This document shows positions 13,971 to 38,000 of a DNA stretch of 64,000 bases, one piece after another. Each line of letters starts with the position of its first letter. Position 1 is the stretch's first letter. Both the position numbers and the translations under genes were made by a program. The stretch is from Leucoraja erinacea (lineage: Eukaryota). The notes below the pieces were generated by a model. That model saw nothing but the letters and a program-made list of their open reading frames with translations, had not been told where the DNA came from and ran no database searches. The stretch is from contig NC_073391.1 in the NCBI RefSeq assembly GCF_028641065.1, positions 34,100,001-34,164,000 of the forward strand, written 5' to 3'.

Positions 13971-15967
13971 TTAACAGGGATCTGAGGGGTAACTTTTTCA
14001 CACAAAGGGGAGTAGGTGTATGGAATGAGCTGCCAGAGGAGGTGGTTGAGGCAGGCACTATTGCAACATTTAAGAAATAATTAGACTGGTACGTGGATAG
14101 GATAGGTTAAGATGGATATTGGCCAAACGCAGGCAGGTGGGACTAGTGTTGATGGGGCATGCTTGTCGTTGTGGGCATGTTGGGCCGAAGAGCATGTTTT
14201 CACACTGTATGACTAATTGGCATATATATTGGCAATGGAACAATTAAATTCTTACTTGCTGCAGCTTAACAGACTCGTAAAACACAACAACACAGAGATA
14301 AATAACAATGAACAAAAATCCAATAAGTCAATAATTAGTAACACTCGATAACAGTGCAAATTGAAATCTGTAGTGCAAACAAAACTAAGTCCATAGAATG
14401 ATTCAAGAACGTGATGGTTGCTGGGGAGAAGATGTTCTTGAACCTAGAGGTCACAATATTCAGGCTCCTGAAACTTCTTTCCGATGGTCGCAGTGAGATG
14501 AGAGCATGGCTAGAGTGGTGTGAGTCATTGAAGATGCTGGTTGCCTTTTTAAGGCAGCAGCTCCTGTAGATCCCTTCGATGGTGGGGAGGTCAGTACCTG
14601 TGATGGATCAGGCAGCGTCCACCACTCTCCGTAGTTTGTTTATCATGGAAAGACATAAAATGCTGGTGAAACACAGTGGGGTCAGGCAGCATCCCTGGAG
14701 AAATTGGAACGTTTTTCCAAAGAAGGACACAAAATGCTAGAGTAACTTAACGGGTCAGAATCATATATGTAGCGACTGTTCTCCAGGGATGTTGCCTGAC
14801 CTGCGGAGTCACTCTGGCAACTCTGTGTCTTTCCAGGGACATGGTGGTGGGAGCTTTGCTGTACATCCAATGCAAACTGTCCCAGCCTGCTGGTGCATAA
14901 GGGATGGTAGATATAACTCCTATCATTCCACCGATAAAAACACACCAATCGAAGAGTGCAAAAGGTTATTCGCTGGCAATAAATCTGCCAACTGGCTGCT
15001 CTCACCCAGATCTTTCTTAAACAGCCGGAGTCAGATAAACTTCCACACAACCAAAAGCAAAGAGAGGGCTGCTGGCTTCCTGCAGATTGCACCGAAGCGA
15101 GGCATTCTTTATGGTCAGATCCTCGGGAATTCTCCTGGGGGAATTCCATGAAGAAAGAGTTCGCATTTCAATGGCACATAGCCCTGTTCTCCAGAGATGT
15201 TGCCTGACTCACTGAGTTACTTAGTTTTAGTTTAGTTTAGAGATACAGCATGGAAACAGGTCCTTCGGCTCACCGAGTCCGTGTCGACCAGCGATCCCCG
15301 CACACTAACACTATCACACAGTAGGGACAATTTACAATTTTTATCGAAGCCAATTAATCTACAGATCTGTACGTATTTGTGGGAGGAAACGGGAGCACAC
15401 AGAGAAAATCAACGCGGTCACGGGGAGAATGTACATACCCCGTAAAGACAGCACCGATACTACAGCATTTTGTCTTTATTTTTTAAACCCATCTGCAGTT
15501 CCTTGTGTCTAAATAATGTTAATGCTTCAAGACAATCAAAAGTAACTGATAATATTGACCCCTTTTTGCTATTGGTATCTTAATTGGACTCGTCACCCCC
15601 TACCCCCTTACTTTTAGTCTGAAGATGGGTCCCGACCCAAAACATTACCTATCCTTTTTCTCCAGAGATGTTACTTGACCCGCTGAGTTACTCCAGCACT
15701 TTGTGTCTATCTTTGGTGTAAACAAGCATCTTTGTTTCCACGAGGTGCCAGAGGTAGTTGAGTCAGATACTATAACAGCATTTAAAAGACACTTCTGCGC
15801 GTACATGGTTAGGAAAGGTTTTCAGCGGCAGGGGCCAATTGCAGAAAAATGGGTCTAGCTTGGATTAAGAGTCAAGAGTGTTTAATTGACAGATGTACAG
15901 AAAATGGAACAATGACGTTCTTTCTTGCAGCTGCATAACAGGCAACAGCATCTTGGTCAGTATGGAT

Positions 15968-17490: not shown

Positions 17491-18499
17491 TATAAAGTTA
17501 ATTGTGTCAGAAGGAACTGCAGAAGCTGGTTTATATTGAAAATAGACACAAAATGCTGGAGTAACATAGCAGGTCAGGCAGTATCTGTAACATCCAGGTT
17601 CAGGAACAGCTTCTTCCCTACACCCATCACACTATTAAATACTACAACCTGCAAATAAGCTCTGAAGTACATAGACTTGGAGGCATTGGTTTTGTCTTTT
17701 TGTACTATTATTGTTTGTATATGTATATATATATACACACACATTCACACTGAATTGCTCCTTTGTTCTAAAGATACTGTCTGACCCATTGAGTTACTCC
17801 ATCTTTATGTGTGTCTTATGTCGATATATTCTGTGTAGGAAGGAACTGTACGTGCTGGTTTAAACTGAAGAGAGTCACAATAAGCTGGAGTAACTCAGCG
17901 GGTCAGACAGCATCTCTGGAAAAAAGAAACAGGTGACGTTTCAAGTCGAGACCCTTCTTCATATTTTGCTGTAATCTTAATTGGCGTAAGAATTCCATTG
18001 TTCTGTTTGGGACAAATGACAACAAAACACTCTTGACTCTTCATAAGATCATGTGATAGGAGTCGAATGAGGCCATTTGGCCCATCAAGTCTGATCTATC
18101 TCTCCCTAACCCCATTCTCCAGCCTTCTCCCCATAAGAGGAGGCCACCTACTCTTAAAAAATAATAGGTAAACTTTTGGTTGGAACCCTTCTACCATTTA
18201 AGCAATTACTCGTAATTGATTGCCTTGAGATGTTTTGAATAAAAACCTCTATTGCGTTAAATAAAGATGTAGCAGCACATCTAACAGTTTGCTGAATCTT
18301 TCTCCTCACTAACTACAATGTCCTTTAAAAGGGTGCCTGACTGGAAACGTCTTGCTAAACACAGTAAGCAAGTGAATGATTGGGAGCTGTAAAAAAAGAT
18401 CACGATGCGAGTTGCTATGGAAATTGCTGAAAGAGCAAGTTAAATAATAAAGTGAAATGTTCTCTTGCCTTCCTCTGCTTCATGGAATTAGGTCAGTGG

Positions 18500-20075
18500 T
18501 TGTGGGCCCGGCCTGACCTGGCCACCACGCATGCGCCGGATTCCCCCCCCTCCCGGCCAAAGATCCCGGCCGTCGAGAGGTGGCGGCGCATGCGCGCGAT
18601 TGAATCTCCCGCCTCCAGCTCGGCGCGCGCACGCAGTAGGCGGCCGCCCGACGGAATGGCGTCACGCGAGAACCGGAATTCAGCGCGTGCGCGCCGCGGC
18701 CGTTTACAGCAAAGATTTAGCAGGGGAACGGACAAGAGGTTTAATGCACAATCTGCAGATGTATAACGCATATTACACATTGCACAGTCCACAAAGTGTA
18801 GTAAATACCTCATGGAAGAATTAAAAAATCTAAAGAACGTATTTTCACATTAAGCCATTTCCTGCAGATAAAGATGGGCTTTTGGACAAACCGGTTCACT
18901 CCGGTTTCGGGCGGTTCCCACGCCTGCGCAGTTGCTTCGCGTCAACCCCCAGCAGCCTCTACAATGTATTTCCCGGCAGTAAAACGGGAGTGCGCGCATT
19001 AGTGGATTAACCAATTATAATTTTGTAAGAATGAGTGCAAAGTGATAAAAAAATATGTAGGGTCTTGTGGCCGAGCGAGTCGCCGCGCGTGCGTACTGTG
19101 ACGGGTGTGGCTGCCGTCGGCGGTACGCATGCGTGGCCGCGGGGAGGTGGTGACGGAGCTGCGCACGCGCTGTACGGCGGCCAGCAGCGCGCATGCGCGA
19201 GGGGCGGAGGGAACAGAGTGCCGGGCGGCCGTGCGCATGCGGGCGGGGCGTGTCGGCGGCGCAGGGCGGCCGTGCGCATGCGGGAGGGGCGCGGCCAGGC
19301 GGCACGCACGCGCGGGGCAGGGCGGCGGCGGGCAGTGCGCATGCGGGGAGGCGGGCCAGCGATCCCAGGGTGCTTCAGTGGACAACAAGGGACGGAAGCG
19401 AAGGATCGCACAGCCGCCCTGAGAGAAAAAAAAAACCCAGATAGAGAAGCAACCCGCTCCGTGTCAGAATCATTTTCGTGCGCGGCAGATCGGCAGTAGT
19501 CGGGGAACAGTGAGCCAGGCTCGCCGACCCTCCGGTCGCCATGGTGCAGACGGACAAAGTGCCCCCGGGCCCCCAGGACAGCGGCAGCAACAGCGGCGGA
19601 GGAGACTGCTCCCCGCCCGCACAACCCTCCCCTGCCCCCGTCCCCGCGGCCGATGTTGGCCTCCCCGTCCCGCCCGGCGACCCCCCGGCCACGGCCGAGC
19701 CCGCCGCCACCGACGCCCCCGATCCCACCCTCGCCTACGGCGGCCTCGACAATCGGCCGGCGCCGCCTCGCACCGACTCTTCCGGCGGCAAGAAGTTTCT
19801 GTGCGGCGTCGTGGAAGGTAAATGAGTTAAACAGTGGCGAGCGCCTTTAAAATACCCACGTCCCGATCGGCGGCGGGGGTGTAACATGTATTCCATTAAC
19901 GATGCACCATGCAGGCGGCACAGTCTTCCTCGGTGTGGAAAGCGCGGCTTGTTTGTCCCTCTGGCTCCTTCCTGCCGCCGCGGGAGGGGCGACGTTGCTT
20001 CTGAAGTCATAACATCCTCTAATTCTATCTCTCCCGTGAATAACAACGTGCACCTGGGACGTCCGACGGTGTAGA
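18500..20075 (+). promoter_or_regulatory. CpG island / OGA promoter with multiple NRF1-type GCGCATGCG motifs and GC boxes
   Basis: Very high GC and CpG density against a CpG-depleted background. Spans OGA exon 1. Confidence 0.85.
19541..19817 (+). CDS. OGA: OGA coding exon 1 (Pro/Ala-rich N-terminus ... FLCGVVE-G)
   Basis: gtcgccATGG Kozak context; GAA G|gtaaat donor. Confidence 0.92.
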
Positions 20076-23000
20076 ATTGTTATTGTCACCTGTACGGACT
20101 GCAGTAATAAGCTTTGCCTTCCAATTAAAGATAATGCTAGACGCAAGGAATGTGTGGCAGCACAGTGACGCAGCGGTAGTTGTTGCCTCGTAGCACCAGA
20201 GATCCGGTTTCCATTCTGACCACGGGTGTTGTCTGAACGGGGTTTGTACAAACACAAAATGCTGGAGTAACCCAGCGGGATAGACAACATCTTGAGGGAA
20301 AGAATGGCTGACGTTTTGGGTCGAGACCCTTCAGACAGAGTCAGGAGAGAGGGCGACCAGAGATATAGATGGATAAGGTGTGAAAACGAAAGATCAAAGC
20401 AGATGGTGATCAAGGAAATGTAGAATGGTTCATTGTTGGCCATGGGGAAGGTGACAAAGGGGGCATATAATCAGGTGGACAGCGGAACTAGTACTTATTG
20501 GTGTCATAAGGTCCTAAGTGATAGTAGAATCAGGCCATTCGGCCCATCAAGTCTAATCCACCATACAATCTTGACTGATCTATCCCTCCCTTCACCCCAT
20601 AACCTCTGATACCTGTACTAATTAGGGATGGATTAACTCGCATCTGCAATTCCTTCCAACACACACATTTGTAGGTTAATTGGCTTCTGTAAATTTTCCC
20701 ATAGTATAGGATAGAACAAGTGTCCAGTGTGATCACTGGTCAGTGCTGACACGGTTGGCCGATAGGCCTGTTTCCGAGCTATATCTCTAAAGTCTGAAGG
20801 AACTGCTGCTGCCGGCTTACAAAGACGAGGTGTATGAGTAACTCAACTGGTCGGGTCGCATCTCGGGTGAAGCAGCCTTCTTCGTAAATATAAGCAAGCT
20901 AAACTCAAGTACAATAATAGGTAGAGCAAAGAGAACTATAGAGAGCAAAATATAGTTTCTCAGCATTGTAGTCTAACGGTTCCAAAGACCAATGTCCGCA
21001 AAGGGGTTGAGGTGAATCTTGACAGTACCCTAGCTTTTGGAAGGACTGATCAGAAACCTAATAATGAAGGGGAAGTAGCTATTCCTGAGTCTGGCGGTGC
21101 ACGCTTTCAAACTCCTGTATCTTCTGCCGAACGGGGTTGGGATGTAAGGTGGTGGGGTTGTTAATGCTTGTTTTGGGGACTAGCTCCCTTCAGTTTTCTC
21201 TTCAGCATATAAATGGCATGCTCAATTGGGTTCAGATCGGGTGATTGACTTGGCCACTCAAGAGTTGACCATTTTTTAGCTTTGAAAAACTTCTTTGCTG
21301 CTTTAGCAGTATGTTTGGGATCATTGTATTGCTGTAGAATGAACCGCCGGCCAATTAGTTTGGACGTATTTGTTTGAACTTGAACAGATAGGATGTGTCT
21401 ATACACTTCGGAATTCATTATGCTACTACCATCAGCATTTGTATCATCAATTAAGATAAGTGAGCCAGTTCCTTCAGCAACCATACATGCCCAGGCCATA
21501 ATACTCCCACCACCGTGTTTCACAGATGAGGTGGTATGCTTTGGATCTTGGGCAGTTCCTTCTCCTCCATACTTTGCTCTTGCCATCACTCTGATATGTC
21601 AATCTTCATCTTATCTGTCCACAAGACCTTTTCCCAGAACTGTGGTTGCTCTTTTAAGTACTTCTTGGTAAACTCTAATCTGACCATCCTGTGGTTGGCA
21701 TCTTGCAGCGTACTGCTGTATTTCTGTTCATGAAGTCTTCTGCGGACAGTGGTCATTGACAAATCCATATCTGACTCCTGAAGAGTGTTTCTGATCTGTC
21801 GGACAGGTGTTTGGGAATTTTTCTTTATTATAGAGAGAATTCTTCTGTCATCAGCTGTGTAGGTCTTCCTTGGCCTGCCAGTCCCTTTGCGATTAGTAAA
21901 CTATAACCAGTGGTCTCTTTCTTAATGATGTTCCAAGCAGTTGATTTTGGTAAGCCTAAGGTTTGGCTAATGTCTCTTAACAGTTATTCTTGTTTCTCAG
22001 TCTCATAGTGGCTTCCTTGACTTTCATTGGCACAACTCTGGTCCTCATGCTGACAAACTGCAATGACATTTCCAAAGGTGATTAAAAGACTGGAGGAAAG
22101 ACTAGGTGCTGAGAGCTCTCTTGCACCTGCATTAAGGAGGCAATTAAACACACCTGAGCAATTACAAACACCTATGAAGTCCCATGTGTTCCAAACATAA
22201 TGGTGCCCTGAAATGGGGGAACTATGTATAAATCATGGTGAAACCAAAATGTTTAAAAATGGCCATTAATAAAGTCTGACAATGTGTACTTTAACATGTG
22301 ATTTTTCCTATTACAAATCTGAAATTGTGGAGTACAGAGGGAAATAAATAAATGACAGGTCTTTGTCCCAAACATTATGGAGGACACTGTAAATTTATTG
22401 GGGAATGGGGTTAGGAATTTGGATGGTAACTGGCTGAAACAATGATTCTCCATATGGCCATTTTGATCTAATCCTGATGTTAAAACACCCATCACACCAT
22501 GGCTCCTTTCAACAAGATCCCTAATGTATCTGTTTTACTTGATTATTTTAAAGCCTTAGTGTAAAATTAAACACTGTCTAAAGTTGACATTTTGATCATT
22601 TGCAGAATGCTAGGTAGAAATAGTGGTGCCTTTCCTCCTCCTTGGCGCTGTTGAATTAAACCTACTGACACAGTATTACCATGCCTGTGAAATCTGCTTA
22701 AACTGTTCCAGTCTCTTGCAACAGCTGACAGCTTGCTATTTGGTTCGCTGCCACATTCCTTTTGTATTGTATTGTATTGTATATCTTTATTGTCATTTCC
22801 TGAGTATTCACATACCCAGAGGAAACAAAAAAACGTTGCTCAACCAGTGTCCATTCAGTGTGCATTAAAAATAAATAGAAATAAAAATACATATATCATG
22901 AACAAATTTAACACTCTACTAAACATTCAACAGGCGTTCCGATCGGCAGCGGCACAACAGTGGCTCTGCTGCAGTGTGTCCAGGTTGGTGGTTGGTGCGC

Positions 23001-26000
23001 GATACTTTGGCAGGGGGCAAAGTCCGTTTAGCAGTCTTATAGCCTGTGGGAAGAAGCTGAGGAGCATCCTGCTGGTTTTGCAGCTAATGCTCCTGTACCT
23101 CTTCCCAGATGGCAGGATGGAGAATATGTGATGCGATGGGTGGTTCACTTTAAGAATAGAATCAAGAATTATCCCTTTGTCTCCCCTGCATTCAGACGTG
23201 TAAGGTAAATTCTGTGTAGCTGAACAAAGGGAATTGTGGGTAAGACAATCATGGTATTGTCTGCATCCCCTAATTTGTTTGTCCAAGTTGTCTAGTAATT
23301 ATTTTTTTCGGGTCTCTCTTTGCTAAACCCAGTTGTGGATATTCCATTTTATGTTGCAGAATAAAAACAAAGTACGTACTTGTGATGTGGTTGCCTGTGC
23401 CACAGATTTGCCTTTGTACATTAAGAAGGCAAAATGAATGAACTGCATTTACAAGCTAATGCTCTGGTAATATTGCCTGACGGGTGAGAGGGAGTACTGG
23501 CCAACAATATTTTGCGTCATACAGTGCCAAAATAGATCCCTCGACCCAACTTGTCAATGCCAACAAAATATGTAATCTAAGCTCTAGTTGCATTTGGCCC
23601 ATATATCGATAAATCTTTCCTGCCCATGTTCCTGGCCAAATATCTTTTAAACATTATAATTTGTACTTCTAAAGCTTCCTCTTGCAGGTAATTATTTGTG
23701 CCCTTCTGTGTTGGAAAGTTGCCACCTTGGGTCGCTATTAAGTCTCTATTCTCGTATCTTGAAGCTGTCCTCTAGTCTCAGATTCTCTAGAGCTGGAAAA
23801 AGAACAGTGACCATACACATTATAAAGGGGGAGAAATCCTAGCCTCTCCAACCCTTTGTAACTCAAGTCCTCCGATCCCAACAACATCCTCGTGAACTTT
23901 TTTTGCACTCCTGATCTTGGTGCCCTGACTGATGAAAGCAAGCCATGCCAAACAGTCTTCACCACCCTGAGGACCCGTGTCGCCAAGTTCAGAGAACTAT
24001 GTACTTGTACTCCTGGGTCTCTCTGTTCTACAACATTCTCCAGAGTCCTATCATTTACTGTGCAAATCCTGTCCTGGTTTAACTTACCAAATTGTGACAT
24101 CTCACACTTGTCCGAGAAACGTTCCATCTGCCATTCCTTGGCCCACTATCACAGAATGATTGCAAAGGGCTGGCTTTGTTTACGATGCAGGGATGCATCC
24201 CATCTTTATTATCAGTGTTATTTCCTGCTCCTCACAAATCTGTTAATGTGGCCAGAGATGACTTGCACGGTTGTATTTCATTCCCACCTTGTTGATGTCC
24301 CTGTTCTGCTGACATTGACAAGAATGGTAGTTTAGCACTGAATGAAAAGTCAATTTTGAAAATTACATTTGTAAGAAATACTAATTGTTTGAAAATGGTA
24401 TCCACTAAGACGTTTTGACTAACTAACTGTGGGTCACAAAATGGGAAGTGAAATGGCCTGATTAGATGGCATGATATCCTCCAAGACATTCTGTTCCCTA
24501 TTGGAATCATTGTGACACCTGTTCTCTAATAACATTGGGCACTCATATGGGCAGCATTTTGTTTCCTTTCAATCCAGTATATAGTCTTAATCAACTGTTT
24601 TAATTACCCCCAGGACCCTATTTTGTTGAGGCTTATTAATCTTTGAGGGTTATGTATAATCTCCCGTGTCTACCTATTCTCGGTTTTGCTTTCTTGAGGA
24701 TGGTTTGAATAAACTCAGTGAACTCGCATTCAGTGTAGGAAAGAACTGCAGATGCTGTTTTAAATCGAATGTAGACACAAAATGCTGGAGTAACTCAGGC
24801 AGCATCTCGGGAGAGAAGGAATGGGTGACGTTTTGGGTCTAGACCGTCATCAGTTTAAACCAGCATCTACAGTTCCTTCTTACACGGTCCATGACATCCA
24901 TTGGTCTGTCAAAACGGGTAATCCAGGAAGGCTCTGGAACAAAGGGTGCTGGAAAAGAAATCTAAACTGGGGTGCTGGTGCGTACATCAGTTTGCAATGA
25001 AATTCCTTGCTCGCGTGAAGCTCAGAGTAAACAGCTGATTGTAATGATGGACACAACAATAAATTCAACACATGCAAAAGTGCAGAATGGTGCAAAGAAA
25101 CCCTGCAATAAAGACGAACCAAATGAGGTAGAGTCAAGAGTAAGAGTACGTGACAGCAGCTCCATGATGGTGGATGTGAAAGAGGTGATTGGTTCAGAAG
25201 TCCGAGAGCAACCGGAAAGCTGTTCCAGAATCTGGGCATCTAAGCCTTCTAGTTCCTGTATCTTCTCCCAGAAGGTAGAACTGACAAATGGCCAGAATTG
25301 CAGGCATCCTTAATGGCCCAGTCTTGCTGATGCATTGCACCGTGAAGATGGACTGGATGGAAGGAAGTGACGAACCTGTGATGGACTGGGTTGTGTCCAC
25401 CACTCTGTAGACTCGGGCAGTCAAGACCAGTGCAGTTGCCATACACGGCTGAAATGCATTCCATCAGAATATTTTCAATAAAAGTCCTGGCAGTCATCTC
25501 TATATTAATTACCAATCTCAACACCATGAAACAGCTAAGGTAGAGACAAAATGCTGGAGTAACTCAGCGGGACATGCAGCATCTCTGGAGAGAAGGAATG
25601 AGTGACGTTTCGGGTCGAGACCCTTCTTCAGACTGAAGGGTCTCGAGTCTCGACCTAAAACGTCACCTATACGAAATTGGAGACATGGAGCTCCAGGAAG
25701 AGTGAAACGTTACTGGAATGGATCGCTTAGGCTTCCGGGGAGCTGAGATACTGGCCCGCAAGTCAGCCTCAGAACTCGGATATGGGAACAGATCCTCTGG
25801 CTGGGCCGGAGAGTGGATACGAAAATGTAGTAACATGGAACTACTTGACTGGGTGATTGACGGTCTATGTTTACTCAGTGGGCGGAAGGGCTTCTTTCCA
25901 TGCTGTATCTTTCAATCAAACAATAACCACTAGTGTGGCTATTTTCTTACTAAATTAACCTAAATAGCCTTTGAACTTTCCTCTTGCCAGTCATGGAGTT

Positions 26001-29000
26001 TCAGCGCAGTTTGTTTTTATTTAGAGCGTGACCAGAAATGTGAGTTCAGACAGCAACCATCTGTCATAGGCTGCCTGAATGCAGGGGATGGGATCTGTAC
26101 TCAGCAGATTGACATTGACTGTGGAGGATACTCTTTCATTTAGACCTCTCACTGCATGTAAATGTGCCAGTTCTATTTGGCAACGTGGGAGCATATTTGG
26201 TTTGATGTAATTGTGACTAGACATGATTAGTAAAGGAATCTGTTGCCGTGTTTTGTGCTTGGTTTCGAGATCACTAATTAGCAAACCAACTGTTTAGTTT
26301 CTGGCACTCTGCTAAGCATACAGTGGTGCCTACAATGCAAAGGGATCTCATTTGTCATCCTTCAATTGAAAAAAAATTGTGACAACATGCCTCATGCCAA
26401 AATGTTGGGATGCTATATATCTTTTCAGTGCATGCTTTAGGACTGTACAATATTTCTAATGTGTCTTCCTCTGCAGAGGCAAAACAACCGTGATGCCATT
26501 CAGCTGACAAAGGTTCCATTTAATGGATTTTTAAAAAAACACTTAATTTTCCAAGGGCAATTGAGGAAGGATAATATTTACATGCAATAATTTACGAGAT
26601 ACTTGCCCGATAAGTGCTTAATTGTAACCTTTTTCCTATTTATGGCAAAGGTCAAAGCATAAATATGTTCAGCATTGTATAAGGGCTGATTACTGGTGGA
26701 TTGGAGCTGGTGATGTGGTAGTTTTGCTGTGAGGCTATTGGCTCTTGGGTTGCCCGGGCAACACTTGTTCTGCATCAAGGAATTTGGGAACAGCTGTTTG
26801 TGTGTAAATGGCTTGTGTGACCTGGGTTTAAAACAGCGTGCCGTGCGCACAAAGCCGGCTTCACCGCAGAATTTCCCAGTTTAGTGCCATGAAACCTTAA
26901 CTATAACCAAGCACTTAACACCGCAACAGATTCCTTTACTAATTGTGTCTGTTTAAATGAGGGGGGGGGGGGCATATTGAAGGAGAACACAGTTGCAGAG
27001 CTGGGTGACCAACCTTTGCGGAGGGATGCAAAAGCAAGGAAAAGATTTGAATGTGTTTCGGGATGCGTTGGGAGGCACTGCAGATGCTGGTTTAAAACCA
27101 AAGACAGACACAAAAGGCTGGCATAACTCAGCGGGTCAGGCAGCATCTCTGGAGGGTTGGGACCCTTCTTCAGTGTTTTGCTGGGTACCAGAACGGTTCA
27201 ACAAACACAGTGGTGATTAGTGAAAGACACAAAATGCTGAAGTACCTCTGGGATAGGCGGCATCTCCAGTGATGCTGCCTTTCCCACTGAGTTACTCCAG
27301 CATTTTGTGTCTATCTTTGGTTTAAATCAGCACCTGCAGCTCTTTCCTACACATGGTGATTTGTGAACTGGACATGGTATGAATTTAAAGATAGCGGTTT
27401 GGGTTAATAGGCTGCTAAATGTAGGGTGGAGGCTAGTTGTGAATGCAGTGAAATCAATTTGAGGTACAATTCAAGGTTTCAGTCCTGGCTTAATTGAAAT
27501 AGGAGGTATAATTAATGTTTCAGATGAAAATGGGTGGATATTAATCACATTGGCGTCCTTTAAATAATTAATCTCTTCACCCCAGCAGTGATTTGGAGTC
27601 TCAATCCTTACATCCATCTTTCAAGCCATTCCTTTAATTCCCTTTGACTGGTCTAATGATTTTGAAAGAACCACATGTCAAATTGCAACTATCAGACTGT
27701 GTCATTACTGTTAGCATTAGGTGTCATAGGATGTTTTGACATAAATGGTGTACATCTCCCTGCTCCCCACTTTTATGTCACTGCTTTCTCAGTGCTTCAT
27801 GTTCTGACACAAGTGTACTGTAATCTTCTGAGTCTTTAAAATATCAACCTACTTTCAGTGTTGGACACATTTTAGTGCCTTTCACAAGCAAACAACAAAC
27901 TCCTGGAGATATTGTGCAGGTCAGGCAGAGTCTGGGCAGGGAAATGAGCACGAATAGGGATCCAGACCAGAAACATCTCCTATTCATTTCCCTCCATGAT
28001 TGCCGACTGGCCTGCTACTCTCTTCTGTTTTTTTTTTTTTGCATTGGATTCCAGCATCTGCAGTCTATGATCATCTAAATGTTTTGTTCATGTTAATAAT
28101 GACAACCAGAGGCCAAAGATGATGTTCAAAACTTCAAAACTTTTTTTTAAGACACTTATGTGGCAGATTTAATGTTTTGATTGCACCCCAGATAGTAGAG
28201 AACTTCTTCAGTACTTCAATGGAATGGTGTGAATTATACACTCCATCCACAAGAATTCTTGTTTGCAATTTTCAGAATTAATCAGTGCCTACACTAATAT
28301 TTTACATGAAATAGACCTCACTTTTCTTCTTACTTTGAACAGCGACACAGCACAGACCAGAACTGTGTATAGTACTTTAAATATATGGCCCTAACATGAC
28401 ATCCCACCTCCTGTATGAATTATTTCGACTGATGAAAGCCAGCACTCCAAATGCCGTCTTCAGACTGTTTATCTGTGTCGGCACTTTCATGGAATTGTGT
28501 GCCCACACTACTCGGTGCCTCTGTTCCACAATACTCCCTACCACTTTCACTGTAGTTAGGAACCTGGTTTAACTTATCAAAATGCAACCCCTCATATTTA
28601 TCTTGATTTAAACTCCATCTGCCATTCCTCAGCCCACTGGCCCAGTTGATCAAGATCCTGCTGTAATCTTAGATGGCCTCCTTTGTTATCCACTTTGCTG
28701 CTAATTTTAGTGTCTCGAAAGAATGTGTCCTTGGAAATGCCTCCTAATTCAAAGCTACAGGCAATACATATAATATAATAAAAAATAACTGCAGATGCTG
28801 GTTTATGCCATAGATAGACAGAGTACACACTGTCCTTACTAGCTTTATTAGACACATAGTCATGAATGAATAAAAATACATTTTATTGAATTGTAGTTTT
28901 GCTTGTATTTCATATTTAATACCATGTTATTATTTGCTTACCATCAAATCCTTTGGGCAGATATGTGAAATTTGTGCCATTTGCAGTATTTTATTTTTTT

Positions 29001-32000
29001 AATCTGTTCTTTTCCGATTTCCTAGGATTTTATGGGCGGCCCTGGAGCATGGAACAGAGAAGGGAGCTCTTCAGAAGGTGTGTTTCTGTAACTCATCTCG
29101 GGTGTATTTTGAAGTTGACGGTCTCTTCAAACTAAATCGGCAATCTCATGACTCGCTTTATTTATTAACCCTGCGTGAATCCACATACAGAGAAATTATA
29201 GTAACGTGAATTGTCACTGAGGAAAATGAACTTTCTTTTCACCTTTGAAAGTATTGATAACTAACCTACAGTCTACTGCCATTGGATCAAATTGAGATTC
29301 TAAAGCTGTTGTCTCCACTCTAGCTAGAAGTTATTCTCACTAATAACTTTTCTTTGTGGATTTTAATCTTCAATGTATGTTTTTTTTTCCTTTAATGTAT
29401 GCTTGTATGTTTAATTTGGTTTGTAATGTTACAGATTTAACACTTTAGTTTTGAAGGAACTGTTATCAAATAGTTACGCGTGCTTCCTTTGAGGCTGATT
29501 TAGCCCTTTTTCTTCCTCTTCCAAATCTGGTCATCTGAACTGGTGTGTTCTAGTTTTATCTAAAACTCCAGCATTTTGGATACTTCAGTGCAGAGAGGCT
29601 TAATGTGCGTTTTTATTGTTACATTCTTCAACAGAATGCGTCGATGGGGATTGAACACATACCTATATGCACCAAAGGATGATTATAAGCACCGAATGTT
29701 CTGGCGAGAGATGTATTCTGTTGAAGAAGCAGGTGAGTCTCAGTTCCATTATTCCCTTTCTGTTAATGTTGCACAATTTAGTTCAGTTCAGAGGTGGAGC
29801 ATGGAAACTGATTCCAAGCCAACCGTTGATCACCCGTTCACCTTAGTTCTATGTTATCCCACTTTTTCATCTGCTCCCTACAGCCATTAGGGGCAGTTTA
29901 CAGAGGCCATTGTGCTTGCATGTCTCTGGGGTGTGAGAGGAAAGCGGAGCACGCGGAGGAAGCCCACGCAGTTACAGGGATAACGTGCCAATTCCATGCA
30001 GACAGCACCTGAGGTCGGGATCGAATCCGGGTTTCTGGTGCTGTTTATCCTATATGCGGATTTTCCTTTGATGGAGCTCCACCACTAGTTGAACACACTC
30101 AGTCCCGGGAAGAGGCATAGTGAAGTGTACGTTTCATGAGTCAAGAGTGTTTAATTGTCAGATGTCCTGACAACCGACCTGACATTCTTCCTTACTGTAG
30201 CATAGCAGGCCTTAAACAGGGTATACATAAATAATATATAACAGAAATTTTGTAAAGTCATAAATTCTGATGGTGTTTTGGGTCAGGACCTTTCTTCTGA
30301 CTGAACAGTTTCTTATTTCGGCATCTTTCTGATGAATGGTCCTGACCTAAAATGTCTCTCTGTCCATTCCCTCCGCTGATACTGCCTGACCCGCTGTGTT
30401 CCTCCAGCACTTTGTTTTGCTCAAGATTCCATCGTCTGCAGTTTCTTATTTGTCGGTTCATTGGCCTTTTCAATGTCCTGTTGTACCAGCGGTGTGCTGT
30501 TGTCTGGGAGTTGTCCATTCCTTGGCTCTTAGATTGATTGTTTTCTTTAACATTTCTGCTGCAAAGCTTTTGTTTATTCATCTTTTTCCTGTTCCAGAGC
30601 AATTGATGCAGCTGATTACTGCAGCAAAAGAGCACAGTATTGAGTTTGTCTATGCCATATCACCTGGACTGGATATCACTTTCTCTAATCAGAAGGAGGT
30701 TGCAACTCTTAAACGAAAATTGGATCAGGTGAGTGTTTTTATGATATTTGTGGAAGTCATAATCAATTTTGTAACTCAACTTTTTCAATTGCCAACCAGG
30801 TGAATGGGGTTGGAACTGATTTTGCTATTGGAAGAATAACGTTAGGATGGAAAGGGTGCAGAAAAGATTTACGAGGTGCTGCCAGGATTTGAGAGCCTGA
30901 CTTGGAGGGAGAGGTTAGGCAGGCTAGGTCTTGGAAACATAGGAAATAGGTGCAGGAGTAGGCCATTCGATCCTTCGAGCCAGCCATTTAATATGATCAC
31001 GGCTTATCATCCAAAATCAGTACCACGTTCCTGTTTGCTCCCCATATCCCTTGATTCCCTTGGGGCTAAGAGCTATATTTAACTCTCTTGAATGCATCCA
31101 GTGAATTGACCAGTACCCTCAATACCATGTGCTCTAATTTTGCTAACTGCACTCTTGTGTGGGACCTTGTATAATGCATCTTATTAAGTTGTATGAAATC
31201 ATGAGGGGAATAGATGTGGTGAATGTGCAGTCTCTTACCCAGAGTAGAGGAATCAATAACCAGAGGACCGTGGTTTAAAGAGAGGGGAAAGAGTTAAAAG
31301 GAACCCAAGGAGAAAAAGAGGATGGTGGGTACATAGAACGAGCTGCCATAGGAGGTAGTTGAGGGAGGTATTACAACAACATTTAAAAAGCATTTGGACA
31401 AGTACATGGATAGGAAAGGTTTAGAGGGATTTTGGCCAAATACAGGCAGCTGGGACTAATGTTGATGGGGCATCTTGGTCGGCTAGGGCAAGTTCGGCCA
31501 GGGGAGTCATTTCAGTTAATGAACACTATCTTCCTGTTTTACAGGTGTCACAGTTTGGTTGCAAGTCTTTTGCACTGTTATTTGATGACATTGACCACAA
31601 CATGTGTCCAGCAGATAAAGAGGTCTTCAGCTCATTTGCGCATGCACAACTCTCAGTTACTAACGAGATTTATCAGTATCTGGAAGAGCCGGAACACTTT
31701 TTATTCTGTCCAACTGGTGAGTATGCAGAAATATTTCATACTGTAATGCAACCTGGGTATAAGGTTTCTGCTGCCCGGGAGTCTGTAATTATTCTTTTCC
31801 TCCTTGTATTTGATAGCTGCAAAGGTGTTCTTGACTCCAGGGCAAAGCCATACATTTTGAGGGTGCAGAATTGACTCTTTTGATTTAAAACTCTACAGAA
31901 ACATTCTTTTATCAGATGCATTTATGTACTTGCTGATCTTTGAGTCGTAAGGCTGGTTATCTTTTCTGGTTATATAGCTGTAGAATTACCAAAGTAATTC

Positions 32001-35000
32001 TTTGAACTTTACTGTAATTTGCCTGTTGTTTAAAAGGAAGAAGTTCCAAAAAAGGTTTTTGTATAAATGAACAGTGCCCCCTCGTGAGATTTGTTTTAGT
32101 CATGTGTGAAGAAATTGTGTTTCCCAGTGTTCTATTTCACAATCGACTCTCGGCTCTGTGCAAATACAAAAATCTGACGTCCAGTAAAGTTAGTTCAAAG
32201 GCTTTGTGCTACCAAAGGGGTTCTGGGGCTGAAGTAGGAGTTGCTTTAAAATCAATGTCAAAAGTATATATGTCGAAACGAGTAACTGCAGATGCTGGTT
32301 TACAAAAAAAAAATCCCAAAGCACTGGAGTAACTTGAGTCAGACTGTAGTCTGAAGAAGGGTCCCAACCTGAAACGTCACCTCTCCATGTTATCCAGGGA
32401 CCCACTGATTTACTACATCACTTTGTGTCTAAAATGTACTTATTTGTCACTTGTCTCTGCAATTTCAACATTTTCCAATGGATCTCTGTGGCAGTGGCCT
32501 TGTATGCAATGTATGCATACCTATTTATTAGTGTCAGTATTCCAAAGGAATGCTAACATCTTAATTGCCCTTAAATTGTGTTGTTTTTATTTAACCAGTA
32601 TTGGGAAATGCAGTGCCCTTGGTGTTTATCAAAGCTAAAAAATGCTCAATTCTTGAGTGACCAAATCAATCACCCGATCTGAACCTAATTGAGCATGCCT
32701 TGTATATGCTGAAGAGAAAACTGAAGGGGACTAGCCCCCAAAACATGCATACGCTAAAGATGGCTGCAATACAGGCCTAGCAGAGCATCATCAGAGAAGA
32801 CACCCAGCAACTGGTGATGTCCATGAATCACAGACTTCAAGCAGTCTTTGCATGCAAACTATGTGCAACAAAATACTAAACATGACTAATTTCATTTACA
32901 TGATATTGCTGTGTCCCAAACATTATTGTGCCCTGAAATGGGGGGACTATGCATAAACACTGCTGTAATTTCTACATGGTGAAACCAGAATGTATAAAAA
33001 TGGCCTTTAGTAAAATTTGTCAATGTGCACTTTAACATGTGATTTTTTTTTTACTATTACAAATCTCAAATTGTGGAGTACAGAGGCAAATAAACACATG
33101 ATGGGTCTTTGTCCCAAACATTATGGAGGGCACTGTATTTCAAATTTATCTGTCTCCCCTTTTCCTCTTTTTGGGGCCAATATGCCTATCCCTGAAGACA
33201 CATTTTGTACTGGTATTTTGTGAGTAGTTCACTCTATAACAGCGTTCTAATCCCCTGACAATTTTCTGTGGGGGGGAAAATGTTTTCTGCAAAATAATCT
33301 GAGTTTGAAACTTGACTTGAATTACTAAGCCCAGGGGTGCAGATTGAGATCTCTGGCTTCTATGCTTACTGAAAGAAAATTAACCTAATTCTGTGTTCCC
33401 CAACCCCTTGCATTGGAGTCTAGTTAAGGTTGAATTTGAATCTTTAATGTTTTAATTTAGTTATAAATATCAGTGCTGCAATGGTAGAGTTGCTGCCTCA
33501 TGTCACCGGGGTCCTGGGTTTAACCCTGACTATAGTGCTGGCTGGCGTTTATACGTTCTTCCTGTGACTGCGTGAGTTTTCTCCAGTGCTCTGGTTTCCT
33601 CCCACATTCAGATTCAGGTTCGGATTCAATTTTAATTGTCATTGTCAGTGTACAGTACAGAGACAACGAAATGCATTTAGCATCTCCCTGGAAGAGCGAC
33701 ATAGCAAACGATTTGAATAAATAATAATAAGTGTCTGGGGGGGGGTGGTGATTGGCAGTGAGGTACGTTGTAGGTTAAGTTGAAGCTTTTCGACCTGTGA
33801 AATTGCCTTTGTGTGTACGTCCATGTGGGGTGAGTGAAAGTGGCGATGCTAACGTAGACTCAATGGAGGGGAGCTAGGGCAATACAAATGTTCCGATCGA
33901 TGCAGTTGCCATACCATCGTGATGCAGTTGGTACACTCAGTGGACGGTAGAAGGGATCCGTGGGTTTCGAATGCTTTTGCACATACAAAGAGGCTCTAAA
34001 CTTGCCTTTGTGTGTAAAATATAGATAAATCAATAACATTGTGGCTGTAATGTCAAGGTAATAAAAGTGCTTGATTGCAAACAGTAAATCGGGTAAAATG
34101 TGTGAGAAACTAACTGCTTCTTGATGTGTAGGTCCAAAAGTCGTGTCCAAAGATATCTCTGTGGATTCTATTGAAGAGGTCACCAAAATATTGAAGAGGT
34201 CTCCTCTCATCTGGGACAATCTACATGCCAATGATTACGATCAGAAGCGCCTCTTCCTTGGGCCGTACAAAGGGCGGTCAACTGAGCTCATTCCACGACT
34301 GAAAGGAGTATTAACGAACCCCAACTGTGAATTTGAAGGGAACTTTGTTGCCATTCACACGCTGGCTACCTGGTACAAATCCAACATGAATGGTGTGAGG
34401 AAGGATGTCGTAATGAGTAAGTAGACTGCATGAAACTCGGCTGCAGGCTTCATCTGACATTTGTGACTTTAGTATTGTTTCCAATATTGGTAGAGGTGCA
34501 TTAAACATTTGGGTACAGTTGGTTGTAACCTCAGAAAACCCAATTGTTTTCTTTTATTTAACATTATTATAACATTAACTCAACATTAATTGGTGGTAAT
34601 TATTTCCTCCACCTGTGGATGTATGATGACTTTGAAGATGAGGCTGAAATTGGCACCAATGTTTGTATTCAATGCCTGCTGTATGTACAGCTGAAGCTGT
34701 TGGGGGAAGTGCTGCTGTTGGTATTCTTGTGCATCAGAGTGTGAAGCTGGGATCTTGCTGTTCCTTACCACATTCCATAGGATTTCAGTCTTGTAACAAG
34801 TGACTATACTGTACTTTGTGTTAACTGACAGTAAGTACCTCTGGTTTAGTCAGAAATGTCACAGGATAATGTTGGCAAAATGATAGCCACCGCACCTTCT
34901 CTGTTCTCTCCTGTGACTTCTGCATTTATTTGGAATATTAGTTCTTAATGCTGATTTTATTATGGGTTATGCAGTAAAGCCATCCTTTTTCTTTCCTCCA

Positions 35001-38000
35001 GCTGACACGGAAGAGAACACCGTGTCCATCCAGATCAAACTTGAAAATGAAGGCAGTGACGAGGAGATAGAAATGGATGTCTTGTACAGCCCTCAAATGG
35101 CTTTGAAGCTGGCCATAACAGAATGGATGCAGGAATTCGGAGTACCGCATCAGTATAACTGTAAGCATTTGACCACATTTTCACTAAAAGTCTTTCCTAT
35201 CGGTGATCCACAAAGTTTTATCCTCCCAAATACCGGAATGTGACTGGCACAGAAAGACTTGCTTTTCAGTTTCCATTTAAGTTTTTTGCGTACGTCCAAA
35301 TTGAACAATATCAAGGCTAGCTAAGAACAAATCTGGGTACAGTCGGACAGATAGCATTCAGTCCACTCCTTCTTGCTGGCCACTTGGCAGCTCTCAATTC
35401 TTATTGGCACCCCATGGGTCTTCCTTGTGTGAAGACTTCGACTTGCACTATTCTAGAATATAATCACTAGCAATAATTTTCCTCAACTTCCTTCGAATAC
35501 TTCTACAAATTGTGTACCCCTGCATGCCTCTCTCCCTCCCTACTGAGTGCGATTTAACATTTCTATTCACAGTGTAGGCTTCGTAAAGCAGAGTGATCTG
35601 AAATAGTTCTATCTGCCTCAACTACTATATTACTACTATACAGTCTGAAGAAGGTTTTCGGCCCGAAACTTTACCTATTTCCTTCGCTCCATAGATGCTG
35701 CTGCACCCGCTGAGTTTCTCCAGCATTTTTGTGTACCTACTATTATGGCATCTTTTTCCATATAAACATCACCCTCTGTGTGGAACAGTTACCCCTCGGT
35801 TCCTCACCGTAAACCTTTCCCCTTTAGTTTTTGATTACCTTTCTCTGGAAAGAAGACTGCGTTCACCGAATCTCATTAAGGTCACCATAAGGCTCCTATG
35901 ATCCAAGGAATAAAGTCCTAGTTTGGCCAACTTCTCCCTATAAATGTGGTCAGGTTTAATCTACAATTGGAAATCGGAGGTGTCCGTGCTACAGTTGAAT
36001 AAAGGGGACTATGGGGCCAATAGAGCATAATAATTTAGAGCATGGTATGAAATGGATAGGGTGTTGACATGACATGACGTATGAAATGACATAGGGTGTT
36101 GACATGGAGAGAAAATTGGTTGTCAGACCGGAAGCAAAGAGGAGGCATGAACAGGTCCTTTTCAGAATGGCAGCAGTGGCGAGTGGAGTAGCGCAAGGCT
36201 CGGTGTTGAGGCAACTGATTACCATATATATTAATGATTTGGAAGAGGGAATTAGGAGCAACACTAGCAAGTTTGCGGATGACACAAAGCTGGGTGGCAT
36301 TGTGAACTGTGAAGAGGATATTAGGAGGTTGCAGGGTGACCTGGACAGGTTGAGTGAGTGGGCAGATGCAGTATAATATAGATAAATGTGAGGTTATCCA
36401 CTTTGGCGACAAAAACAAGGGAGCAGATTATTATCTCAATGGGGTTAGGTTAGGTAAGGGGGAGGTGCAGCGAGACCTGGGCGTCCTTGTACACCAGTCA
36501 CTGAAAGTCGGCTTACTGGTACAGCAGGCAGTGAAGAAAGCTAATGGAATGTTGGCCTTCATAACAAGAGGATTTCAGTATAGGAGTAAAGAGGTTCTTC
36601 TGCAGTTGTGTAGGGCTCTGGTGAGACCACATCTGGAGTATTGTGCACAATTTTGGTCTCCTAATTTGAGGAAGGACATCCTTGTGATTGAGGCAGTGCA
36701 GCATAGGTTCATAAGATTGATCCCTGGGATGGCGGGACTGTCGTATGAGGAAAGATTGAAAAGACTAGGTTTGATTCACTGGAGTTTAGAAGGATGAGGG
36801 GGGATCTTATAGAAACATATAAAATTATAAAAGGACTAGACAAGCTAGATGCAGGAATGCAGTTCCCAATGTTGGGCGAGTCCAGAACCAGGGGCCACAG
36901 TCTTAGAATAAAGGGGAGGTCATTTAAGACTGAGGTGAGAAAAAACTTTTTCACCAGAGAGTTGTGAATTTATGGAATTCCCTGCCACAGAGGGCAGTGG
37001 AGGCCAAGTCACTGGATGGAATTAAGAGAGAGTAAGATCGAGCACTAGGGGCTAGTGGAGTCAAGGGATATGGGGAGAAGGCAGGCACGGGTTATTGATA
37101 GGGGACGATCAGCCACGATCACAATGAATGAGTTCATGGGGAGAAGGCAGGCTCGAAGGACCGAATGGCCTCCTCCTGCACCTATTTTCTATGTTTCTAT
37201 GTTTCATAAGGGAGGAGCTGGCCAAAGTTGACTGGAAAGATACCCTAGCAGGGATGACAGTGGAACAACAATGGCAGGTATTTCTAGGAATAACACCGAA
37301 GATGCAGGGTCAGTTCATTCCTCGGAGGAAGAAAGATTCCAAGGGGAGTAAGGGGCGACCGTGGCTGACAAGGGACGTCAGGGACAGTATAAAAATAAGA
37401 GAAGTACAACGTAGCGAAGATGAGTTACAGAGCAACAGAAGATAACTAAAAAGACAATACGGGGAGAAAAATGAGGTACGAAGGTAAGCTAACCAAGAAT
37501 ATAAAGGAGGATAGTAAAAACTTCTTTAGGTACGTGAAGAGGAAAAAAATAGTTAAGTCCAAAGTTAGACCCTTGAGGACTGAAAAAAGGTGAATTTATT
37601 ATGGGGAACAAGGAAATGGCAGATGAGTTGAACGGGTACTTTGGATCCGTCTTCACTCAGGAGGACACAAACAATCTTCCTGATATAGTAGTGGCCAGAA
37701 GATCTGGTGTGACGGAGGAACTGAAGGAAATCACATTAGGCAGGAAATGGCGTTGGGTAGACAGATGGGACTGAAGGCTCATAAATCCCCAGGGTACTTA
37801 AGGAAGTGGCTAGAAATCGTGGATGCATTGGTAATAATTTTCCAATGTTCTATAGACTCAGGATCAGTTCCTATGGATTGGGGGTTAGCTAATGTTATTC
37901 CACTTTTTAAGAAAGGCGGGGGAGAGAAAACACGGAATTCTAGATCAGTTAGCCTGACATTGGTGGTGGGGAAGATGCTGGTGACAATTTAAAAAAGATG

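Follow-up and report, generated by a model that had tools for sequence, protein, structure and literature searches.

On sequence evidence, an abundant short repeat in a 64,000-nucleotide stretch of the Leucoraja erinacea genome (hereafter, the window) is the 3' end of a Penelope-like element (PLE) rather than an orphan repeat, and its protein relatives suggest that this PLE is likely of the Neptune type. We think it probable that the repeat represents this PLE end, composed of a hammerhead motif and a tail, and that its scattered copies, likely by-products of truncated and inverted retrotransposition, are decaying neutrally and rarely, if ever, cleave host RNA. A longer model of the unit identifies 44 repeat pieces, amounting to 3,709 bases (5.8%) of the 64-kb window at a density of about one piece per 1.5 kb, and gives no matches in any of five shuffled windows. 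The abundance of the repeat in the original prediction is therefore borne out, and all 15 of the copies listed there are recovered. The ribozyme does lie at an end of the repeat, as had been stated, but this is the 5' end on the coding strand, from which the unit continues for ~95 or ~135 nt. No match to the repeat was found in the viral contigs that we searched.

Column counts were made on 21 heads, 6 of the 27 head-reaching pieces having been excluded because of low alignment scores. The family majority matches the published minimal type-I hammerhead consensus, with CUGANGA, GAAA and UH supplying the majority letter at every core site. The additional nucleotide that follows position 9 and precedes 10.1 is A in 16 of the 21 heads, G10.1 is present in 16, and C11.1 in 12, with a CpG-type T in 8. 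At the palindrome (15.2-16.2), 18 heads have C and 11 have G, 8 carrying a CpG-type A instead, and the G makes up 44-70% of depth across four sequencing runs. The hammerhead core with an extra A after A9 and an ACGU palindrome replacing stem III, which had been read from the end of the repeat, is the majority state of the family; a complete invariant core is retained in 5/21 heads, and core plus palindrome in 2/21. Two details of the earlier model require correction. The proposed 5-bp stem II would leave a 2-nt loop, and stem II is 4 bp closed by a tetraloop. Moreover, the 3-bp stem I (AGT/ACT) holds for the best copy but not for the family, in which helix I is 2 bp (position 1.3 is C in 14/21 heads and T in 5/21); helix I of published minimal hammerheads ranges from 2 bp upward (PMC4209133).

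CpG decay of the ribozyme is supported, the majority letter being kept in 59 of 95 CpG cells compared with 192 of 215 non-CpG core cells (Fisher P=8e-8), although the claim that most copies have lost GAAA applies to only 7 of the 15 copies originally listed, and G12 is replaced by A in 9 of the 21 heads. No selection on the core is detected, since non-CpG core sites are kept at 89% and tail sites at 86% (P=0.20).

Could the resemblance to a hammerhead have arisen by chance in an unrelated repeat? The bare CTGANGA..GAAA pattern gives 10 matches in the whole window against 5.74 expected, and 10 or more are seen in 8 of 100 shuffles, so that this enrichment is not significant alone. An Rfam scan of the window returns no hammerhead family at E<=10, a scan that is uninformative for minimal forms, and compensatory stem II changes are absent within the window's own family. 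What carries the case for a hammerhead is not the bare pattern or Rfam but the repeat family, its agreement with the published minimal-hammerhead consensus and the PLE context in which it lies. The predicted stem II covariation does appear across families: at least 4 Watson-Crick pairs form in 14 of 41 distinct metagenome matches obtained with stem II left unspecified, compared with a null mean of 0.36 and a maximum of 4 in 5,000, and both sides have changed in 3 of 4 stem II pairs in a hand-picked cross-family alignment. The 59 metagenome loci represent other families of other organisms, or chance, and inform on architecture only; the window's repeat model matches just one of them (L021, 48 nt), and in another (L044) a ribozyme of this kind is preceded by a PLE RT-endonuclease frame. 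Given this covariation, and a family majority that fits the published consensus and lies where it should, behind a PLE ORF, the chance reading is already largely refuted, and we give it almost no credence.

The best minimal type-I motif (25601..25634, minus strand; C3 at 25631, predicted cut at 25604/25603) lies antisense in intron 1 of the host gene O-GlcNAcase (OGA). Read from 25634 to 25601, it consists of AGT, CUGAAGA, the extra A, a GGGU/ACCC stem II capped by the loop CUCG, GAAA, CG, UC and ACU, and is followed by a tail (25533..25600, minus strand) in the short form, which lacks the optional ~35-nt extension. A head-to-head inverted partner (25631..25671, plus strand) has a core broken by loss of A9 and G12. 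This partner is predicted to fold back on the best copy at -38.6 kcal/mol (z -5.5), so that the two inverted copies would form a hairpin that traps the best copy. The predicted active dimer has an energy of -0.9 kcal/mol compared with -12.7 kcal/mol for the best dimer fold, and for the best copy the active dimer lies 12.6 kcal/mol above the best dimer fold, all of these figures being equilibrium predictions.

The association with PLEs, which the original prediction drew from known systems, is seen directly upstream of one copy. Here a PLE GIY-YIG endonuclease, 5'-truncated at ~53858, is represented by its last 52 codons and its stop (53857..54015, plus strand), which are followed by a pyrimidine-rich 3' UTR that runs from the endonuclease stop to the ribozyme (54016..54112, plus strand), and then by a ribozyme head and short tail (54113..54216, plus strand; C3 at 54118, with G12 and A15.1 mutated). 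The endonuclease frame is 71% identical over 52 aa to the tail of a skate gene model, and its best protein matches are skate proteins. Among 52 full-length RT-GIY-YIG proteins, 39 have a C-terminus to which it can be aligned. A CX2-5CxxC linker together with a Cys-containing GIY-YIG core is present in 44 of these 52 proteins and a DD motif ahead of the endonuclease in 43; the linker is also seen in the skate relative P0004 and in the relatives P0014, P0026 and P0070, and RT in P0026. The fragment in the window contains neither the linker nor the GIY-YIG core, so the clade is taken from relatives, and RT, lost from the fragment by truncation, is likewise seen in relatives only. Pfam gives no match for the 51-aa fragment. 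The full-length RT-GIY-YIG proteins are 29-49% identical to P0026, for which a cluster look-up returns RT/GIY-YIG clusters that carry no clade name. In addition, contigs from sequencing runs span endonuclease, UTR and head, those from one DNA run extend 5' of 53858 into more sequence, and gene model P0045, from another record, passes from the same endonuclease end into translated sequence of the head (65% across 20 aa, E=4e-7). Only 1 of the 21 heads in the window is linked to an ORF, there is no full pLTR-ORF-pLTR element within the window, and no intact full-length batoid element was seen. A further endonuclease/UTR-like match at 37062-37217 (E=0.049) proved on inspection to be the end of another repeat. 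As a separate observation, pieces of the element's endonuclease end have already been absorbed in skate gene models.

The ends and arrangement of the copies bear on how they were formed. We find 15 adjacent pairs of pieces compared with 4.1 expected, 9 of the 15 being head-to-head (P=0.004). Four pairs are in tandem, and in no case are both cores intact. All four sequencing runs contain inverted joints at 54115-54117, and the three runs of DNA also contain tandem joints that lead from 54204 back to 54112. The 3' ends (n=41) fall at model positions 93-107 in 14 pieces, 108-122 in 3, 123-140 in 23 and 88 in 1, giving two classes ~35 nt apart that correspond to an optional tail, although model positions 95-105 are poorly conserved and the split may be partly an alignment effect. 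Inverted truncated copies and an optional 30-40-bp tail are PLE hallmarks (PMC8557442). Both sides of the cut site are kept in every head, implying that the template RNA had not been cleaved at this point. We looked for truncation at the cleavage site and found none: tail-only pieces start ~8-18 nt beyond it or later, and the inverted joints listed from the sequencing runs start at 54151-54166 rather than at the cleavage site itself (54146).

These features can be accommodated by a mechanism resembling that of an anole PLE, for which the RT-endonuclease reaction has been demonstrated in vitro (PMC11167929). By analogy, the RT-endonuclease protein would bind the element RNA just 3' of the hammerhead and nick DNA, and cDNA would start at either of two internal sites ~65 or ~100 nt beyond the cleavage site, so that short and long tails result. 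Synthesis would mostly stop early or fold back, which would explain the short and the inverted copies. In the live element, stem III may arise by pairing between the ACGU palindromes of two tandem copies, whose cutting would be weak and probably assisted by protein (PMC4209133, PMC6765202). The original description of a highly amplified, non-autonomous, ribozyme-bearing retroelement is thus supported as regards the PLE-type minimal hammerhead and its amplification. A separate non-autonomous family appears less likely, the copies resembling PLE insertions that were truncated and inverted, although the sharp 5' boundary would fit a short lineage.

The 5' boundary is the feature for which another origin has to be weighed most carefully. 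The sequence common to the copies ends 3-5 nt upstream of C3. Of the 21 heads, 17 begin no more than ~5 nt from the core, and only 4 have a UTR-like stretch upstream; so sharp a boundary is not expected from plain random 5' truncation. This clustering of 5' ends immediately before the core may reflect the 5' end of a transcript or an RT stop. Alternatively, the short copies might be a SINE-like, non-autonomous lineage, in which a PLE-end-derived unit of 100-140 nt beginning at hammerhead stem I is self-transcribed and copied in trans by PLE protein. Joints that gather at 54112-54117 in other genomes are consistent with such a lineage, as is summed contig depth in the three DNA runs (at most 40-66 million for the tail and 8-17 million for the endonuclease, which is not copy number), and PLE pLTRs are given as the source of non-autonomous elements in a 2026 preprint (10.64898/2026.07.22.740005). 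The endonuclease end is, however, very abundant in the runs too, with a depth similar to that of the ribozyme core, and linkage to an ORF is seen for at least one tail type that looks young and for a second type (54118; P0045). No promoter was identified for the short unit, and internal priming on ordinary PLE transcripts can yield the same product. We therefore regard a SINE-like lineage as unlikely, if still a serious contender. Were it correct, batoids would harbor a Neptune parasite made up of a hammerhead and a PLE priming tail, with its 5' end fixed at stem I, which would be one of their most frequent repeats. If the window is representative of a 2-Gb genome, intact cores would number in the order of 10^5, one of the largest ribozyme loads known in a vertebrate, and the ends of the unit would preserve in the genome the places where PLE RT starts and stops. 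The tandem joints, both the four pairs in the window and those from 54204 back to 54112, could also suggest a non-LTR retrozyme, that is, tandem 150-450-bp units with type-I hammerheads spread as circular RNA, and retrozymes are reported in the one chondrichthyan sampled in the same preprint. Nevertheless, Tandem Repeats Finder detects no array of the unit in the window, the copies are mostly solo or inverted, and the ribozyme is of the minimal PLE type and lacks the canonical helices I and III found in retrozymes (PMC7229834), making this origin highly improbable.

The remaining copies vary in arrangement and in preservation. Inverted arrangements include head-to-head pairs at 11810..12015 and, decayed, at 27883..28064; a two-head head-to-head pair at 30269..30456 with a CUGAUGA variant on the plus strand that has lost G12; a tail-to-tail pair at 17760..17965, with a minus-strand head at 17962 that lacks C3; a three-piece cluster with tandem and head-to-head members (27063..27357); a head-to-head pair with another plus-strand copy that has lost C3 and G12 (48982..49408); and a long-tail minus-strand copy whose inverted partner is a tail end only (24728..24888). 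G12 is also lost from a long-tail copy (6917..7049, minus strand) and from a copy with UTR-like sequence upstream (15616..15750, plus strand), the core is damaged in a copy with ~110 nt of UTR-like sequence upstream (20248..20338, minus strand), and four decayed pieces lie 3' of the OGA coding region (62157..63519, plus strand).

We mapped 15 coding exons of OGA (19541..59438, plus strand), the introns of which hold 28 of the 44 pieces. Could some intronic copies be functional ribozymes, forming trans-dimers with abundant RNA of the repeat to cleave OGA pre-mRNA and alter its processing? Two sense copies retain the invariant core. The first (32348..32436, plus strand), the 32351 copy, also has the ACGU palindrome; its core had been described as intact, which is true of the invariant core, but a G10.1-U11.1 wobble replaces the G-C pair, stem I is 2 bp, and a tail-only inverted partner lies immediately upstream (32274..32346, minus strand). 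The second (35641..35734, plus strand), the 35645 copy, has a non-palindromic ACUU and a stem II mismatch. Antisense copies with the invariant core but broken palindromes are found at 48534..48637 (minus strand; AAGU) and 52085..52183 (minus strand; ACAU, with a UTR-like pyrimidine stretch upstream). Repeat sequence occurs in runs guessed to be RNA, among which X15 is marked as probably DNA, and amniotes have conserved intronic hammerheads (PMC6155905). The proposal that working cleavage sites have been seeded in OGA introns is, however, not supported. The two sense cores are 3.3 kb apart, and their stem III sequences, ACGU and ACUU, do not pair with each other. Stem II is predicted to be unformed in context for both, its probability falling from 0.72 alone to 0.00 for 32351 and being <0.01 for 35645, and the dimer energies given above likewise disfavor the active form. 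The strand-bias check shows none, with 14 sense and 14 antisense pieces, and 2 sense and 3 antisense intact cores, within the OGA coding span. Moreover, published minimal hammerheads failed to cut as monomers and were weak as dimers (PMC4209133), and no RNA-seq ends were found at the anole cut site (PMC11167929). Most copies are mutated and unlikely to cut the host gene's RNA, and we consider ribozymes that alter OGA processing very improbable.

The pairing of a minimal hammerhead with a PLE has been known in fish since 2014 (PMC4209133). We found no earlier report of a minimal-hammerhead PLE in cartilaginous fish in the literature searched, and the 2014 supplement has no shark, skate or Callorhinchus entry. 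What is added here is the occurrence in a cartilaginous fish, the very high density, and in-genome signs of the mechanism established in vitro for the anole element, namely a pair of priming sites, a template left uncut and inversions formed by fold-back. The size of the family makes it a test set both for how the 5' ends of short PLE copies are determined and for whether minimal hammerheads ever cut in vivo, as the intron strand bias of intact cores could be measured with considerable power. Pieces of the endonuclease end in skate gene models also make the element relevant to annotation.

The skate family shares with the minimal hammerheads of metazoan PLEs (Cervera and De la Pena 2014, PMC4209133) the CUGANGA and GAAA motifs, the extra nucleotide after A9, G10.1-C11.1, a palindromic CG replacing helix III and a short helix I, together with mostly solo copies, few full elements and close opposite-strand pairs. 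Its 4-bp stem II and 2-bp stem I lie towards the lower limit of published lengths. Should the window be representative, a density of 5 intact cores per 64 kb would far exceed that of the ~4,000 motifs in coelacanth and 9,000 in Xenopus (PMC4209133). The amniote intronic hammerheads (RECK and others; PMC6155905) are also type-I motifs in host introns, but these are conserved single loci with full helices, whereas the skate copies are decaying repeats that show no strand bias. Non-LTR retrozymes (PMC7229834; 10.64898/2026.07.22.740005) are similarly short, non-coding, hammerhead-bearing and related to PLE pLTRs, but form tandem arrays and classically have canonical ribozymes and circular RNAs, in contrast to the solo or inverted copies and minimal ribozyme of the skate. 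Inverted truncated partners and the optional 30-40-bp tail are shared with the Neptune clade (Craig et al. 2021, PMC8557442), as are, in the relatives, a GIY-YIG domain C-terminal to RT, the CX2-5CxxC linker and cysteines in the GIY-YIG core, the fragment in the window comprising the last 52 residues only. Poseidon PAc of Anolis carolinensis (Frangieh et al. 2024, PMC11167929), whose ORF begins inside stem II, differs in having no linker zinc finger, but has the same order of a hammerhead followed by two internal RT starts that set the tail, and the same uncut RNA template.

An iterated profile detects 37 pieces of the repeat in the window, and a longer profile detects 44 pieces spanning 3,709 bases (5.8% of the window), with no matches in any of five shuffled windows. 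All 15 copies named in the original prediction are recovered among the profile-detected pieces, and the best copy, read on the minus strand from 25634, has the expected order of AGT, CUGAAGA, an extra A, a GGGU/ACCC stem II with a CUCG loop, GAAA, CG, UC and ACU. The bare hammerhead core pattern is unenriched in the window (10 observed versus 5.74 expected) and an Rfam scan of the window finds no hammerhead, so that the motif must be assessed at the level of the family. Twenty-seven pieces reach the head, and the 21 with adequate alignment were used for column counts. The majority letter at each site in these heads gives a family consensus that matches the Penelope-like element (PLE) minimal-hammerhead consensus published in the supplement of PMC4209133. 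All invariant core letters are kept in five of the 21 heads (25631-, 32351+, 35645+, 48635- and 52180-, named by core position C3); the ACGU palindrome is also kept in two of the five (25631- and 32351+), and 25631- alone adds the G10.1-C11.1 pair. Stem I of the family has 2 bp because 14 of the 21 heads have C at position 1.3.

Most copies had been thought to have lost GAAA through CpG decay. The cause holds, since the majority letter is kept less often at ribozyme CpG sites (59 of 95 cells) than at non-CpG core sites (192 of 215; P=8e-8), but the extent does not, GAAA being gone in 7 of the 15 copies. The core is no better kept than the tail (192/215 non-CpG core cells versus 1,314/1,531 tail cells, P=0.20). 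Contigs of four public runs agree among the matches listed, with G at G12 in 56-66% of depth, G at position 16.2 in 44-70% and A at A15.1 in 91-97%, figures biased against G by a reference copy that is itself mutant there. The alignments show tails of at least two or three subfamilies (30328+, 49065+, 49277+, 62157+, 62524+ and 63389+ versus 25634-, 54115+ and 24851-), a sequence pattern that suggests successive waves. Folding predictions for two copies give a conserved 8-bp stem in the tail, AGAUGCUG pairing with CAGCAUUU (for example at 54163-54200), which is a candidate RT-binding stem-loop. In addition, a 5S rRNA-like sequence at 48641-48734 (+), below the Rfam gathering score (E=2.5), abuts the copy at 48635 (-) head-to-head.

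The repeat is very likely of PLE origin, and the link proposed originally is borne out by an endonuclease frame, by full-length RT-GIY-YIG relatives and by a gene model from a separate record. Upstream of the copy at 54118 (+) lies a pyrimidine-rich stretch (54016-54112), preceded by a frame of 51 residues ending at 54015. Pfam returns no match for this frame, which is 70-74% identical to skate gene models and also matches shorter relatives scoring for GIY-YIG, two of which (protein records P0008 and P0087) exceed the curated cut-off. It aligns to the C-terminus of 39 of 52 full-length proteins (734-958 aa) collected using the relative P0026; 44 of the 52 have a CX2-5CxxC linker followed by a cysteine-containing GIY-YIG core, and 43 an RT DD motif ahead of the endonuclease. 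Judged by the features distinguishing endonuclease-bearing PLE clades (PMC8557442), the linker and cysteine core favour Neptune (or Nematis) over Penelope/Poseidon, an assignment taken from sequence features of the relatives. Moreover, in gene model P0045, a separate record, the same endonuclease end runs into a translated repeat head. Public-run contigs are deep across 53858-54222 and fall off at either end; matching contigs number at least 117,000-132,000 per DNA run in three organisms, saturating counts of contigs that imply a very large family common to the three organisms and carry no copy number. The point where the endonuclease-linked copy is truncated at its 5' end coincides exactly with a 19-bp tandem duplication (53825-53861). 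Pieces of the endonuclease end also occur inside skate gene models P0001, P0002, P0004 and P0019 (neuromedin-U receptor 1, a DCC isoform and two uncharacterised loci), likely through annotation read-through or exonisation.

No compensatory change in stem II is found within the window's own family, and metagenome contigs were therefore scanned using a fixed core and an unconstrained stem II. The scan gave 61 matches at 59 loci with 41 distinct inner sequences, all from other families. At least four Watson-Crick pairs are present in 14 of the 41 (shuffles: mean 0.36, maximum 4 in 5,000), a count that overstates independence because some of these families are related. Both sides change in three of the four stem II pairs in an alignment of eight window copies with ten metagenome loci hand-picked for possessing a stem. 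At one locus (L044) the ribozyme is preceded, about 600 nt upstream, by the end of a decayed PLE RT-endonuclease frame; two others (L004 and L048) have inverted head-to-head ribozyme pairs, as in the window. A GGGAGC...GTGTGC-type motif 20-50 nt 3' of the cut site is common to different ribozyme families (L001, L010, L014, L018, L021, L023, L033, L035, L036, L040, L042 and L044), and may serve related PLEs as a protein-binding or priming element.

Fifteen coding exons of the host gene, OGA, were mapped on the plus strand (19541-59438) using a matching protein record as guide. The window comes from a skate or ray, and its large OGA exon is 100% identical to this record, 93% to Rhinoraja longicauda, 92% to Pristis, 91% to stingrays and 85-90% to sharks. 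Sensitive tblastn finds no match anywhere in the window for residues 244-276 of the record, a stretch encoded by one exon of about 99 nt, reflecting either assembly loss or deletion; the corresponding interval (31715-34131) contains an inverted repeat pair (32274-32436) and a transposon fragment. Within the OGA coding span the copies show no strand bias (14 sense and 14 antisense pieces, 9 and 7 heads, 2 and 3 intact cores), numbers small enough to exclude only a strong bias within OGA. The best copy is antisense to OGA and is predicted to pair with an inverted twin (-38.6 kcal/mol, z -5.5). In equilibrium predictions, from which co-transcriptional folding could differ, stem II of this copy has a probability of 0.98 in isolation but 0.00 in context, and stem II of the sense copy 32351 drops from 0.72 to 0.00; 35645 has a probability below 0.01, and stem II persists in context only at 48635 (antisense, palindrome broken). 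The active dimer is likewise predicted to lie 12.6 (25631) and 11.8 kcal/mol (32351) above the best dimer fold.

Other repeats are present in the window. An RT region from a non-LTR retrotransposon occurs twice in inverted orientation (5657-6597 and 9063-10170; 92-96% identity), the copies lying about 2.5-4 kb apart. A transposase-like fragment at 21161-21598 (-), which we take from its motif to be of Tc1 type, has a 91% identical inverted piece at 32624-32750 in another intron. Near-perfect hairpins at 58035-58432, 40186-40261 and 50164-50265, with sub-threshold Rfam microRNA matches, are probably small inverted-repeat elements. The abundant families D1/D3/D8/D14 and D4/D10 are presumably similar to elasmobranch SINE cores and the 3' ends of LINEs.

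Pairs of repeat pieces no more than 60 nt apart number 15, against a random expectation of 4.1 (at most 12 in 5,000); nine are head-to-head, four tandem and two tail-to-tail. Both inverted and tandem joints occur in the public contigs, the former at 54115-54117 and the latter running from 54204 back to 54112. The 3' ends of the 41 pieces reaching model position 85 form two groups about 35 nt apart, at 93-107 (n=14) and 123-140 (n=23), with three between and one at 88. At the other end, similarity among the copies ends 3-5 nt upstream of C3; UTR-like sequence, judged from pyrimidine content and by eye, precedes only 4 of the 21 heads, a count that could miss diverged UTRs of older subfamilies, and the upstream ORF continues in only one. 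Random truncation leaves this sharp 5' boundary unaccounted for, and the short copies could represent a separate short lineage of PLE origin, which we consider unlikely. Both flanks of the cut site are present in every head, and the short copies are probably a by-product of PLE retrotransposition. As such by-products, they would arise when cDNA synthesis is primed by the element's protein at sites within the tail of uncut RNA; the majority of cDNAs would end early or fold back, and the 5' pile-up may mark where the RNA begins or where the RT halts at the ribozyme. In a live element, the ribozyme would work as a dimer via the ACGU palindrome. Minimal hammerheads are reported to remain uncut as monomers and to cleave weakly as dimers (PMC4209133), and the anole ribozyme to require its protein while being dispensable for insertion (PMC11167929).

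Minimal hammerheads of the fish elements Xena, Poseidon and Neptune have been known since 2014, mainly from solo copies (PMC4209133), and the supplementary files searched contain no shark or ray entries. Penelope is unmentioned in the main text of the little skate genome paper, and our literature search on sharks and rays found, among the records listed, no description of hammerhead ribozymes in elasmobranchs or of Penelope in skate, although Repbase or Dfam may well contain the element. Tandem retrozymes have been reported from a single chondrichthyan in a 2026 preprint (10.64898/2026.07.22.740005), whose supplements may list the window's family. Extrapolated from this one genic window, five intact cores per 64 kb would correspond to about 10^5 in the 2.2-Gb genome given for little skate; up to 120,000 hammerheads are reported in axolotl (PMC7229834). 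What stands out is the density of the repeat together with its clean traces of mechanism. Truncated partner copies in inverted orientation, and a tail of 30-40 bp that may be present or absent, are described as PLE hallmarks (PMC8557442; PMC8969392), the tail being traced in the anole element to two internal RT start sites (PMC11167929), and the window repeat resembles PLEs in its head-to-head inverted partners and its two tail lengths about 35 nt apart.
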